A DNA stretch of 64,000 nucleotides, from contig JABCTZ010000011.1 in the NCBI GenBank assembly GCA_018238155.1, positions 1 to 64,000 on the forward strand, written 5' to 3'. This stretch comes from Candidatus Heimdallarchaeota archaeon. Its GTDB lineage: Archaea > Asgardarchaeota > Heimdallarchaeia > JABLTI01. The stretch's first letter is position 1. Each line of letters opens with the position of its first letter. This document shows positions 5,084 to 59,028 of the stretch, one piece after another. A program made the translations under genes and the position numbers. The notes under the pieces are model-generated. The model was not told where the DNA came from and made no database searches. It was given only the letters and a program-made list of their open reading frames with translations.

Positions 5084-5698
5084 TCAAGAATTACTCCTTA
5101 TTGCTTTATACAAAGCGGAAATATTATCACCTGTTTTTGCAGAAACAGCAACAATAGTTTGATCAGTAAATGTTTGGCGAATTAATTCAGGACGGGAATC
5201 CGGTAAATCAATTTTATTTGCAACAATTATTATTGGTATACCTTGTAATTGAAGATTACCAATAATTGTTAAATTTACTTGTTCAAAAGGTGTTTTAGTT
5301 GAATCTAAGATAACTAAAGCAATATCAACCTGATCTATCATTTTAATAGCTTCAAGAATACCTTTTGTTGCTTCTTTGGCTCTATGAATTGCTTCTTCTT
5401 CAGTCAATCCAAATTTAACGAAATTTCGGTAATCAACAGTAGAAGCAATACCTGGCATATCCATCAAAGTGAAATTAATCTCATATTTATCTATTTTTAA
5501 TAGAGCATTCTCAAGTTTTACCATTTTTCTTGTTTCATGAGGAATTTCGGAAACAGTACCAAGATCATCATAACCAAGATCATTTGCCATTTTATTAGCT
5601 AAAGTCGTTTTTCCTGCATTTACCTCACCGTAAAATGCAAGTTTAATATCTTTCTTTCTCTTTCTAGTAAGAATCTTACTAATCCAACTCACTGCCAA
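5084..5698 (-). CDS. oapA: Era-like GTPase, origin-associated protein OapA
   Basis: GEVNAGKTTLAN, SEIPHETR, DMPG, RAKEATKG, NKID, SAK motifs. Confidence 0.88.
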   Translation of the reverse strand: MAVSWISKILTRKRKKDIKLAFYGEVNAGKTTLANKMANDLGYDDLGTVSEIPHETRKMVKLENALLKIDKYEINFTLMDMPGIASTVDYRNFVKFGLTEEEAIHRAKEATKGILEAIKMIDQVDIALVILDSTKTPFEQVNLTIIGNLQLQGIPIIIVANKIDLPDSRPELIRQTFTDQTIVAVSAKTGDNISALYKAIRSNS

Positions 5699-26643: not shown

Positions 26644-26946
26644 ATGTCTAGGCGAAGATCAAGTCTGAGAAGGTCAAAATATGAAATCTATAATGAGATT
26701 TTGAAAATTATTTACTTTCAAGCAGATCTTCCTTTAACAAGAATATCTCGAGCAGCCAATCTCCCTGTAGATAGAGCAAAACCAATACTTTTATTTCTCC
26801 TAGCAAGAAATTTGATTTTTGATGATGAAGATGATAACTTAACAGTGTATAGAATAACTCCCACAGGAGTAGAATTTTTGGAACTCTTTAAACGATTGGA
26901 AAAATTGATTCCTTCTAAAGAAGATTTTGAAGGAACAACAATATAA
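26644..26946 (+). CDS. Winged-helix transcriptional regulator
   Basis: RRSKYEIYNEIL...TRISRAANL...YRITPTG.EFL. Confidence 0.85.
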   Translation: MSRRRSSLRRSKYEIYNEILKIIYFQADLPLTRISRAANLPVDRAKPILLFLLARNLIFDDEDDNLTVYRITPTGVEFLELFKRLEKLIPSKEDFEGTTI

Positions 26947-48663: not shown

Positions 48664-49422
48664 TTACTCTTTTTTCTTTCCAAGTTCTTCTTCTTGCATC
48701 TTTTTAATCAAAGCTATAATTGGAATTGAAATGTTCTTGCATTTTAATGCAGACATATCAAACATATCAGAATCTTTGAGTTTTAATTCCTTTGAGATAT
48801 CTTTAGCGCTGTAAACGTTAGGCAAATCTTGCTTGTTTACTACATAAATAATTGGTACTTTGCGCTCAACATTTTTGATGACTGTTTCTTTGAACTCCTC
48901 ATAATTCTCCTTAATTTTTGGATCAAGCGGATCAAGGATGAAAATTACTCCATCTGCTCTTCGTTCAGCGAAAGCTCGAATGTCTTTAAAGCGCCATTGT
49001 CCTGGAGTTCCAAAGAGATAGAAGATAGTTACCCATTTGATACCTTTTTCGGTGAGATAATCCTCAGACAAATCAGTGAATTTAATGATTTCTGCACTTT
49101 CATCTCCACCTGTGAGGAGAGCAACAACAGTGAAATCAAAGGTTTGTGTGGCTGTATTAGATTCTGGGAAAAGATCGGGGTTTTCTTTTAAAAGTTCATA
49201 ATCGACATAGAAATATCTTGGAACTTCTCTACCATGAGCTTCAGGATCAAAACATCTAATCATAGTTGTTTTTCCACTGCCAGAATTACCTGTAATACAT
49301 ACTTTGTACACGCCTCGTAATTTTCCACTAAGGTATGGATAAGTATTCAATACATTGTTTGCTGTTAAGATGCGGAGTTTTTTTACTTCAAATTCTATGT
49401 CTTCTGTCAAAGGATCACACAT
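48664..49422 (-). CDS. Small GTPase, MglA/CvnD-like
   Basis: GNSGSGKTT, TATQTFDF, LFGTPGQWRF, NKQD, SAL. Confidence 0.85.
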   Translation of the reverse strand: MCDPLTEDIEFEVKKLRILTANNVLNTYPYLSGKLRGVYKVCITGNSGSGKTTMIRCFDPEAHGREVPRYFYVDYELLKENPDLFPESNTATQTFDFTVVALLTGGDESAEIIKFTDLSEDYLTEKGIKWVTIFYLFGTPGQWRFKDIRAFAERRADGVIFILDPLDPKIKENYEEFKETVIKNVERKVPIIYVVNKQDLPNVYSAKDISKELKLKDSDMFDMSALKCKNISIPIIALIKKMQEEELGKKKE

Positions 49423-50088: not shown

Positions 50089-50583
50089 ATGCCTGTAAAA
50101 TTAACTAATGTAAAACTAAAGAATCCAGAACTCAAGTATCAAATAATTGTTGGACAAGCAAATTTCTCTATATTTACTACTGATAATCTCTTTATGACGA
50201 TGTTAACTACTGTTCCAAGAATAAAATGCGCTGTAGCAATGAACGAAGCAGTACCAAAACTAACACGAGTAACAGCGAATGATTCTACAATAAAAAAACT
50301 GGCAGCTGAAAATGCATTAGCAATAGGTGCAAGTCATGCATTTGTTATCATGATGGAAAAAGCATTTCCAATAAATGTTCTACCACAAATAAAAAATCAT
50401 CCCGCTGTTTGTAACATATTTGTATCTTCAGCAAATGAAATAGAAATTATTGTAGGAGAAACAGCATTGGGCAAAGCTATTCTAGGAGCTGTTGATGGAA
50501 CCAGTGTAGAGAAAATAGAAACTGATACTCAAAAGAAAGAAAGAAGAGAATTAGTGGAAAAATTTGGTTATAAAATAGAATAA
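50089..50583 (+). CDS. Adenosine-specific kinase family (COG1839-like)
   Basis: IVGQANF, AFPINVL, GAVDG, RRELVEKFGYK. Confidence 0.85.
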   Translation: MPVKLTNVKLKNPELKYQIIVGQANFSIFTTDNLFMTMLTTVPRIKCAVAMNEAVPKLTRVTANDSTIKKLAAENALAIGASHAFVIMMEKAFPINVLPQIKNHPAVCNIFVSSANEIEIIVGETALGKAILGAVDGTSVEKIETDTQKKERRELVEKFGYKIE

Positions 50584-50629
50584 AAATCAACTAAAATTGG
50601 TACATAAAAAAAGGCTAGAATGAAAGAGA

Positions 50630-50649
50630 TTCAAGAAATTGCTCTTGAA
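50630..50649. terminator. Hairpin downstream of micropeptide pair
   Basis: TTCAAGA-AATTGC-TCTTGAA. Confidence 0.5.
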
Positions 50650-50675
50650 TTTTGCTCCTGTCAAGGAAATGAAGA

Positions 50676-50762
50676 TTATATTCCATTAATAAGTGCGAGT
50701 TTCATTCTAGCTTTAGCTTTATCTTGGATAATTTTCTTTTTGAGTTGGTATTTTTTAGTCAT
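50676..50762 (-). CDS. 28-aa micropeptide B, MTKKYQLKKKIIQDKAKARMKLALINGI (not in ORF track)
   Basis: AAGGTGA RBS, ATG...TAA; paralogous to adjacent peptide A. Confidence 0.75.
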   Translation of the reverse strand: MTKKYQLKKKIIQDKAKARMKLALINGI

Positions 50763-50791
50763 TAGTTATCACCTTATTTTTTTTATTTCTT

Positions 50792-50881
50792 CTATTGACC
50801 AGCAATCATTGCGAATTTAATTCTGGCTTGGTCATAATCCTTCTTGATATTTAGTTTGATTTTTTGTTTGGTATTGGTCAT
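50792..50881 (-). CDS. 29-aa micropeptide A, MTNTKQKIKLNIKKDYDQARIKFAMIAGQ (not in ORF track)
   Basis: GGAG RBS, TTTATATA box at 50929-50936; paralogous to peptide B. Confidence 0.75.
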   Translation of the reverse strand: MTNTKQKIKLNIKKDYDQARIKFAMIAGQ

Positions 50882-51071
50882 TTTTTGTTCTCCGAGTTTT
50901 ATTCGTAATTAACATACAACTAGTTTGATATATAAAACGGATTCACTTTTTAGGAACTCAAAAAGAAGACTCATAAAGAGGTCACAAATTGTGACTAAGA
51001 TAAGTATTTCATGAAAAAAAGTGTTAAAATAATAAAGGAATTCAAGATGATGAATCCCACTAAAGGATTCA

Positions 51072-52493
51072 CTAATCTTCTTTCCTCTTGAAATATTGAG
51101 AAGTAACCTCATCAATGAATATTTTGTACATTTCATCTACGCCCTCACCAGATATTGCTGAGGTTTCAAAGAAAGGAACGTTGATACCGTACACTAGTGA
51201 GAGCGTTTTAGCTAAATTAAAACCATCTTTATTGCTTACACACTCAATCGTCTGATTTGCACGGAGATCACTCTTATTTCCAACCAAGACAAAAATTAGC
51301 TCTTTTCCTTCAAGATTGATTATTTCGGTGATTAAATTTTTGATATTGTCAAATGATTCTTTTTGAGAAATATCATAGATTAAGAGTACACCATTCACTC
51401 CTCTAAAGAAAATTTCACTACTAAAGTAGGAATGATCACCTGTAGATACATCCCAGAATTGGAAAACGAATCCTTCGCCTTCAATTTCAAGCTGCTTTGA
51501 AGTAATATCTGCTCCAAAAACCTCGTTGTATTCATGGGTAGAATCGTCACCAACAAATTTCCTTCTAAGTGATGTTTTTCCAACTGGACCTTCACCAACA
51601 AGTATAACCTTCATTATAGTTTTGGATATTTTTCTAGTGGTGAGTTCCTCTGGTTTTACTTTTTCTTCAGTAACATGTGGTGTTTCTTCAATAACTTCAG
51701 TACTAGCTTCAACGGGAATTTCATCAACATTTGAGGTTTCTTCAACAAGTTCTGGTTGAGACTCTATACTATTTTCATGTGTTTTTTCAGGAATATCTTC
51801 TATGACTGCTTCAATAGCCTTTTCCATGGGTTCCTCTTCGGATACCTTTTGAACTGGCTCATCTTTCACCTCTTCGATAATTTCCTCGGTGATTTCTTCA
51901 GCAATATCTTCTAAAATATCATCATCAAATTTCTCATCAGTGATTTCTTCTACAGCATCTTCAAGAGCGTCTTCTATTGAATCTTCAATGAAATCTTCGA
52001 CTTCATCTTCAATTTCCTCTTTATCCTCAGCTTTATCTGGAGAAATTTCAATACTCGGTTCAGCTGGTTTAACAACTTCTGGGGGAGCAACTTTTGTAGG
52101 AACTATTTCGCTTTCAATTTTGGATTCCTTCGTAATTGAGACATCATCTGAGGGAATGATTTCTGGTCCACTAGTTTGGATCTTCTCTAAAGTGATTATT
52201 GCAGAACGAAAAACCCCTTTCTTTGACTTATTGCGGGGTTCTAAAAGGGCGTTCTTTAAAGCAGCAAGACTAGGTATAGCTTTCTCACCGATAATTCTGA
52301 GAGCATTAGCAGCTTCAGCTCGAACAAGCCAATTATCATCATCAAGTGATAAAGTAACTGATGGAACAACCTTATCAAGATTCTCTTTGCTTTCTCCAAG
52401 CTTTTCAATTGCACTGCAACGGAGATCGATATTTTCACTTTCTTTGGATTGAGAAATGAGTAAATCAATATTTTTTTCTTTAAAATCATTCAT
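51072..52493 (-). CDS. HEAT repeat + acidic linker + Rab-like small GTPase
   Basis: LRCSAIEKLG, VRAEAANALR; GEGPVGKTSL, QFWD, GNKSDL, FFETSA. Confidence 0.88.
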   Translation of the reverse strand: MNDFKEKNIDLLISQSKESENIDLRCSAIEKLGESKENLDKVVPSVTLSLDDDNWLVRAEAANALRIIGEKAIPSLAALKNALLEPRNKSKKGVFRSAIITLEKIQTSGPEIIPSDDVSITKESKIESEIVPTKVAPPEVVKPAEPSIEISPDKAEDKEEIEDEVEDFIEDSIEDALEDAVEEITDEKFDDDILEDIAEEITEEIIEEVKDEPVQKVSEEEPMEKAIEAVIEDIPEKTHENSIESQPELVEETSNVDEIPVEASTEVIEETPHVTEEKVKPEELTTRKISKTIMKVILVGEGPVGKTSLRRKFVGDDSTHEYNEVFGADITSKQLEIEGEGFVFQFWDVSTGDHSYFSSEIFFRGVNGVLLIYDISQKESFDNIKNLITEIINLEGKELIFVLVGNKSDLRANQTIECVSNKDGFNLAKTLSLVYGINVPFFETSAISGEGVDEMYKIFIDEVTSQYFKRKED

Positions 52494-53123: not shown

Positions 53124-53306
53124 CTATTTATTCTTTGAATAGTTGTAATATTTATCACCGTACTTTTTTGTACGTACTTTCTTTCCTTTATATCGATGCC
53201 ATTCAGCTTTCTTTTCTGCTTCTTTTTTAGTCATTCCTTTACTTATTAATGAAAATCTTTCATTCTCAACTTTGATTGTTTTTGGGACTTCTGTTTTCCT
53301 TGACAT
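53124..53306 (-). CDS. Small basic hypothetical protein (60 aa)
   Basis: Open frame, Lys/Arg-rich. Confidence 0.5.
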   Translation of the reverse strand: MSRKTEVPKTIKVENERFSLISKGMTKKEAEKKAEWHRYKGKKVRTKKYGDKYYNYSKNK

Positions 53307-58182: not shown

Positions 58183-59028
58183 TTACAACCATTCTTCTTT
58201 AATAATTTCCAAAGCAGTAGGGTCAAAACCTGCTACAATATCGATAATTAAATCATAAGCATCTTGACTAACATCCATTTTGACGAGATCAATTGCTTTT
58301 GAACCGATTTGGGGTTCTTTTGCAAGTTCAATCAACATCTTTGCAAATTCAATTATCATGTCGATTTTCAGCTTAGCGGCATATGCTATTCCTTTTGGCT
58401 CCAAAGTAATCAATTTATTCAGAAAAGTTCTAGAATAATTAGAGGTTTTACCGTTTAGAACTTTATTTGAATCCAGATTAACAATTACTGCATCATTATA
58501 TTGTTTTGCTAGTTCAGGTTTTGTTCCAATAATTTGTTTGTTCTTAGTTACTTTCTCTGCCCATTCTACAACAGATGGGTATCTTGTTGGTGCAAAGAGC
58601 TGAAGTGTACGAACAATACGCTTTACAAATTTGCTATTTTTGCTTGTAATAACGATTTGCTTGCTTGATAGAACTGCATGGATAACCTTATCCGCTTCTT
58701 TAACTTGACTTACAAGGAATTTTACATCAGCTATTTCTTCTGTAGACCATTTCTCATCCTCATCACTACCTGTTTCCAGATTACCTACAAAAGGCGAAAC
58801 AGATGCTTGTCTCACAGCATAATTTCTATCAAGAACAATATTCATGATCATTTCTTTACCGTCTTTGCAATGATGAATTGTTGAAACTTGATATAATCCT
58901 CCAATGTGAGGTAAAAGATCTCTGGTAGAGATTTGAAAAACGTCTACATTTTTGCATTGATCACACATAGCACGGACGGAAATAATTGATTTCGTAGTTT
59001 TCCCTTTCTTGCTTTTACTCATTATCAT
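58183..59028 (-). CDS. Cys/His N-terminal domain + DENN-like domain protein
   Basis: CDQC...HHC; VIHAVLSSKQIVITS...TLQLFAP...IIGT...DAVIVNLD. Confidence 0.55.
   Translation of the reverse strand: MIMSKSKKGKTTKSIISVRAMCDQCKNVDVFQISTRDLLPHIGGLYQVSTIHHCKDGKEMIMNIVLDRNYAVRQASVSPFVGNLETGSDEDEKWSTEEIADVKFLVSQVKEADKVIHAVLSSKQIVITSKNSKFVKRIVRTLQLFAPTRYPSVVEWAEKVTKNKQIIGTKPELAKQYNDAVIVNLDSNKVLNGKTSNYSRTFLNKLITLEPKGIAYAAKLKIDMIIEFAKMLIELAKEPQIGSKAIDLVKMDVSQDAYDLIIDIVAGFDPTALEIIKEEWL

Follow-up and report, generated by a model that had tools for sequence, protein, structure and literature searches.

Two short reading frames on the minus strand of the window, i.e., the 64,000-nt stretch of DNA analysed here, are almost certainly real genes. 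They belong to an undescribed, genus-restricted family of basic helical peptides of about 29 residues, and the family is real and comes with a testable regulon. The unit in the window can be read as a self-contained, inducible two-gene cassette made of an operator array, a weak BRE with TATA box, two ORFs led by Shine-Dalgarno (SD) sites, and a terminator. We put the probability that the peptides act in trans in the regulons described below at about 80%; their partner and mode of action are proposals. The genome that holds the window (4.08 Mb, 33% GC, 91% complete) falls in genus JABLTI01, which we take to be Gerdarchaeales. The features of the locus, and the one distant gene that bears on it, are as follows.

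50995-50981, strand not assigned: operator dyad GTCACA-N3-TGTGAC, with conserved columns in 15 cassettes
50939-50973, minus: three phased half-sites (TGAGT, TGAGT, GTGAAT) in 13-14 bp steps from the dyad to the TATA box, invariant alignment columns
50936-50929, minus: TATA box TTTATATA, with a pyrimidine-rich, non-consensus BRE directly upstream
50894-50889, minus: SD site of ORF1, with GGAG inside
50881-50792, minus: peptide gene 1 (ORF1), 29 aa, net charge +5
50775-50769, minus: SD site of ORF2, AAGGTGA
50762-50676, minus: peptide gene 2 (ORF2), 28 aa, net charge +8
about 50649-50630 and 50612-50603, minus: 9-bp hairpin and T-tract, likely terminator, kept in duplicated cassettes
51058-51037, minus: terminator-like hairpin 3' of the upstream GTPase gene, separating that gene from the cassette
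51072-52493, minus: flanking gene outside the unit, HEAT repeat plus Ras-like GTPase
50089-50583, plus: flanking convergent gene outside the unit, adenosine-specific kinase family
26644-26946, plus: HTH_45 (Sso10a-like) winged-helix protein, candidate operator regulator, 100 aa, single copy, Pfam E 5.7e-13

The original prediction had placed two paralogous, SD-led micropeptide ORFs between a TATA box and a hairpin on the minus strand, and both are present there. Its placement of the ORFs stands, but the unit starts further upstream than had been assumed, i.e., at the operator dyad. The 16S rRNA tail of the window genome carries a matching anti-SD, and the hairpin with its T-tract (50603-50649) may double as the terminator of the convergent gene. 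ORF1 and ORF2 are paralogous (alignment score 44, p = 0.0004 vs. shuffles), and their likeness at the peptide level is kept despite diverged DNA, with 10/27 residues and 56/87 bases (64%) identical.

The peptide genes are coding and under purifying selection, as had also been proposed. The cassette occupies the same syntenic place in all eight same-genus genomes with a covering contig, with the gene pair in seven, and in L010 (locus L032). Orthologous frames are found in the genus, third codon positions are the most variable, and pairwise Nei-Gojobori dN/dS values, for which the pairs are not independent, are below 1 for both genes (0.21 for ORF1, 0.34 for ORF2) and range from 0.16 to 0.48 for seven other orthologous peptide groups. 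An SD-like site precedes 70/76 distinct members, compared to 13% of random ATGs and roughly 43% of long ORFs. Frame, start, stop and SD site are retained among the homologues.

The small size of the frames and their place behind a Ras-like GTPase gene at the syntenic locus would also fit modified-peptide precursors or regulators of the adjacent GTPase, both suggested at the outset, or non-coding repeats or RNA. We regard this group of explanations as very improbable. Regulation of the GTPase is disfavoured by the terminator-like hairpin in between, by the cassette's own promoter, and by the many copies, in fact most, that lie away from any GTPase. With regard to precursors, there is no modifying enzyme, radical SAM included, among the neighbours listed and neither YcaO nor a C39 peptidase in the 91% complete genome. 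A non-coding RNA is at odds with the codon-periodic substitutions, and the cassette has no Rfam match and no unusual folding stability (z = -1.6). As to the surroundings of the cassette, a second small-GTPase gene (48664-49422) lies near it besides the one at 51072-52493, which combines an N-terminal HEAT repeat with a long acidic linker, and a basic 60-aa ORF without Pfam match is found at 53124-53306 on the minus strand.

A profile search yields seven family copies in the window genome (ORF1, ORF2 and five more) and 2-15 copies per genome in 11/11 genomes of the genus. No credible copy was found in other Asgard lineages by the same profile among 400 Asgard genomes, nor in the one genome (75% complete) of the sister genus. 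Two apparent exceptions were rejected: the match in G066 (L099) lies on a contig that is 84-87% identical over 4.6 kb to Gerdarchaeales loci and is probably misbinned, and the match in G275 is weak and sits inside a 320-aa frame. Misbinning is also probable for a contig in a genome of another family (L005 in G041), which resembles Gerdarchaeales DNA at 80% protein identity. In a search of 1.84 billion representatives, 61 clusters matched, of which 58 are 27-50 residues long and none is fused to a domain; the clusters looked up are unnamed or 'hypothetical', and Asgard annotations omit nearly all family genes. Pfam gave no family match (best E 0.014 in 2/51 members), and PDB chains and the ESM Atlas gave no usable match to the peptides, all of these searches being insensitive for queries this short. 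The literature searched contains no published description of the family.

Profile, consensus and structure prediction support the original proposal that these basic helical peptides form a new family and that their C-terminal motif is conserved. The consensus reads M-x3-K-x2-I-K-x-Q-I-K-K-D-x-E-x-A-R-x-K-x-A-L-x2-G-x-stop, where R20 and G28 are present in 46/51 members and the C-terminal motif is fixed relative to the stop codon. AlphaFold2 predicts a single helix over residues 3-29 (pLDDT 90), along which positions 8, 12, 16, 19 and 23-26 form a hydrophobic stripe; the helical moment is 0.364 vs. 0.265 for shuffles and exceeds all 500 of them. Net charge in the family ranges from +3 to +10, with 22% lysine, about 10% acidic residues and no tryptophan. 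The GRAVY value is -0.98, the N-terminal two thirds are highly charged, and a hydrophobic signal region is absent; the peptides would probably remain cytoplasmic as one amphipathic helix. Besides the up to 15 recognisable copies per genome, more diverged ORFs of 23-36 residues extend some loci into arrays of three or four, and the peptide tree is poorly resolved. Known motifs (HbYX, the GG of SAMPs, PIP, MIM1, VIM, IQ, the double-glycine leader) did not fit the consensus in a by-eye comparison. One member (L040/L098 in G002) has an internal TAA after 21 codons, i.e., it is a broken copy or an assembly error.

The original prediction had overlooked how large the family is, the operator, the regulon, and the link to ArsR, PadR and HTH_45 regulators. 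In 4.08 Mb there are three exact copies of the dyad, against 0.11 expected, and all of them precede a peptide gene. A weight matrix, with which looser operator copies are picked up, adds further regulon members: the two other bactofilin-like genes, the genes of an ABC ATPase and two ABC-2 permeases, and another small ORF; in a relative, an MFS-type transporter gene (named by eye) also lies behind the operator. Peptide genes, bactofilin-like genes and the ABC-2 exporter have the operator in common. In cassettes of this type (class A), the TATA box lies 55-58 nt before the ATG, and the octamer upstream of it is mostly GAATCCGC, which is pyrimidine-rich and unlike the VRAAA consensus. Among observations at single loci, a weaker operator copy is followed by an ORF of 35 aa that has a strong SD site and is of another type (L181, about 960-1070; G000 C15:29460).

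Outside the genus, the operator precedes a bactofilin-like gene in 22/26 loci of other Asgard classes vs. 5/259 control windows, and an HTH_45 gene lies within 1.5 kb of the operator-bearing bactofilin-like gene in 15/26. No peptide was found at these 26 loci. The form GT[ACT]ACA-N3-TGTGAC together with a bactofilin-like gene, often accompanied by an HTH_45 gene, is conserved across several Asgard classes (L187-L212), and these loci make up a candidate Asgard-wide regulon independent of the peptides. The protein at 26644-26946 is the single orthologue in the window genome of this HTH_45 regulator and, judged by the gene neighbourhood in the other classes, is the factor that probably binds the operator. 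In five genomes (L101, L112, L122, L124, L125) the same operator precedes a diverged 32-aa peptide, whose GC-rich 3' region is probably structured, and deoxyhypusine synthase lies downstream. We judged this link to be positional, since each of these cassettes closes with a T-rich tail of its own and deoxyhypusine synthase has no cassette in the window genome.

The cassette promoter, with its palindrome ahead of a weak BRE and TATA box, shares the arrangement of the TFB-RF1 regulon: in Pyrococcus furiosus, TFB-RF1 activates an ABC-2 exporter via the palindrome TCTG-N5-CAGA (5-base spacer), which likewise precedes a weak BRE and a TATA box (PMC5937170). Both regulons have an ABC-2 type exporter among their members. 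The TFB-RF1 regulon differs in its motif, has no phased array and no described peptide genes. By analogy with TFB-RF1, a winged-helix factor, probably the HTH_45 protein, would occupy the phased sites that precede the weak BRE and would thereby switch on transcription when the cell is under chemical or envelope stress.

The presence of the ABC-2 exporter behind the same operator also suggests a different use of the peptides, namely as leaderless antimicrobial or signalling peptides that are secreted by this co-regulated exporter and resemble phenol-soluble modulins, multi-peptide leaderless bacteriocins or Rgg/SHP pheromones. Leaderless multi-peptide bacteriocins and the PSM-alpha operon indeed consist of 2-4 tandem ORFs of about 20-35 aa with their own ribosome sites that encode cationic amphipathic helices, and the related tandem ORFs of the family, each with its own SD site, share these traits. 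So do the divergent layout of regulator and peptide and the family-5 substrate-binding gene near some arrays fit export. The peptides are, however, far more hydrophilic than such toxins, lack tryptophan, contain about 10% acidic residues, have no hydrophobic leader of the SHP type, and evolve under purifying and not diversifying selection; most arrays have no linked exporter or immunity gene, and no C39 peptidase was found. We therefore consider export rather unlikely.

Whole stand-alone cassettes, operator and terminator included, have been duplicated (97% identity over 512 bp). Paralogues inside one genome can be identical and yet differ between genomes, a pattern that points to gene conversion or else to collapsed repeats in these assemblies. 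The cassettes also bear on whether the peptides are leader peptides (uORFs) that stall ribosomes or couple translation and so act in cis on a downstream gene. A leader would fit three locus types in which the peptide ORF comes first and a bactofilin-like, ArsR or GNAT gene follows after 15-41 nt, and it would also fit a length near that of the exit tunnel and a motif fixed relative to the stop codon. Yet the window cassette and most others end in a terminator without a downstream gene and are still under selection; in the window, the terminator faces a convergent gene, and a downstream regulated gene exists only at those three other locus types. Where there are downstream genes, they have their own SD site, no attenuator hairpin is seen, and the same promoter also stands before paralogous bactofilin-like genes that lack a leader. 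Since stand-alone cassettes are conserved, and have been duplicated whole, in places where no gene follows them, a purely cis-acting role is insufficient, and we consider the leader reading improbable. Action in trans is likely, as the terminator-ended cassettes stay under selection. The family fails membership in the bacteriocin, RiPP and uORF classes.

Three further promoter types carry family members. Members behind TTCTCA-N5/6-TGAGAA lie beside divergent PH1932-like ArsR genes, and with TGTAA...TTACA the peptide heads an operon with an ArsR of 350-390 aa. GGTCA-N24-26-TGACC precedes a large GNAT gene, and six relatives also have it in the syntenic cassette, where it lies before ORF2. Some other arrays are found next to another ArsR and next to a PadR. 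In sum, winged-helix genes of four kinds (divergent PH1932-like ArsR, co-transcribed 350-390 aa ArsR, another ArsR, PadR) adjoin about half of the distinct locus types, and at several loci the peptides are the only adjacent target of the regulator; the window cassette has no adjoining regulator gene. Among the diverged arrays, three ORFs of 34-36 aa lie between two PH1932-like genes (G000 C8 96100-96480; L028, about 5100-5480, minus); they are conserved in L155 and L156 and fall below the profile threshold. At L084:1600-2084, L086:1770-2102 and L083:3130-3447, three or four diverged peptides form an array that is divergent from ArsR-type genes, with sub-types that end in YSDGLI or contain IKKEL. 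A related palindrome, GTCCCA-N3-TGGGAC, is found upstream of the second of two tandem PH1932-like genes (G000 C7, about 58190-58210).

For the peptides acting in trans, the conserved C-terminal end R-x3-AL-x2-G would dock on a protein, and the lysine-rich half would add contacts to DNA or acidic surfaces. The likeliest partners may be the winged-helix regulators themselves, which would give feedback. They are favoured because one or another of four unrelated kinds of regulator adjoins about half of the distinct locus types and because for several regulators the peptides are the only adjacent target. On the other hand, adjacency to a regulator indicates a target and not a ligand, which counts against regulators as partners, as does the absence of an adjoining regulator at the window cassette; that similar peptide types occur under different operators would be expected of a generic effector no less than of a ligand specific to one regulator. 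The predicted complex of a PH1932-like regulator dimer with its own divergent 32-aa peptide, i.e., not with the window peptides, scored 0.01, a value that we count neither for nor against. The peptide profile has no match in the regulator helices, so there is no SinI-like mimicry by sequence. Overall, a winged-helix regulator as target is a tentative assignment to which we give somewhat less than an even chance.

Short peptide genes that adjoin or are controlled by a DNA-binding regulator are familiar from Rgg/SHP, SinR/SinI, and PmtR with the phenol-soluble modulins, which also resemble the family in a basic N-terminus, a hydrophobic C-terminus ending near a glycine, and an exporter in the regulon. 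The family has no sequence likeness to these peptides and no hydrophobic export or processing leader as in Rgg/SHP. The linked regulators are ArsR, PadR and HTH_45, not RRNPP, XRE or GntR, and do not show the TPR-like peptide-binding domain of RRNPP. In class-B arrays the peptide gene is divergent from the regulator with the operators in between; the window cassette is not so arranged. At best, the cassette may work like such peptide-regulator modules (SinI, SHP, PSM with PmtR), and it fails membership in each of them. The regulators linked to the family fall in the groups of PH1932 (PDB 1ULY) and Sso10a/HTH_45 (PF14947), neither of which is known to have a peptide partner.

The peptides could also serve as stress effectors at high dose and, independently of the regulators, bind nucleic acid, ribosomes or some other abundant complex, e.g., as inhibitory helices or in the way of small acid-soluble spore proteins or hibernation factors. 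The net charge of +3 to +10 and the high lysine content suit such binding, many copies, some of them near-identical cassettes within a genome, are what dosage selection would give, and the same peptide types occur under several operators. Small acid-soluble spore proteins, eL41/eS32 and hibernation factors are likewise small, basic, helical, and multi-copy or stress-induced. They differ from the family, which has a hydrophobic C-terminal motif, is confined to one genus, and matches no PDB chain or Pfam entry, ribosomal and chromatin proteins included; its conserved acidic residues and hydrophobic tip suit a protein surface better than plain charge binding. Such effectors are a possible but less probable reading than a regulator as target.

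Judged by distribution and not by a rooted tree, the peptides seem to have been added to older circuits in this lineage. Other Asgard lineages, in which no peptide was found, have both the operator and the regulators, i.e., the circuit does not need the peptide, and in other Heimdallarchaeia PH1932-like regulators with the same operator face long genes and not peptides. In another Heimdallarchaeia family (L161-L171), PH1932-like regulators with TCTCA-N6-TGAGA face a conserved gene of 233-241 aa that is GNAT-like by eye. It is conceivable, at a doubtful level, that Gerdarchaeales added an expanded peptide layer, i.e., dozens of helices of 23-36 residues whose genes form arrays next to, or controlled by, the regulators, to an old Asgard stress circuit, where they would serve as ligands, anti-activators or signals for ArsR, PadR and HTH_45 regulators.

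The range of one genus limits the general weight of the finding. Its yield includes a conserved operator and, as candidate regulator, a protein of 100 residues, both present in several Asgard classes, for which hardly any regulon has been defined, and peptides, regulator and operator are small enough for synthesis and in vitro testing without culture. If the proposal of an added peptide layer is true, archaea near the root of the eukaryotes would possess a transcription network under the control of peptides.
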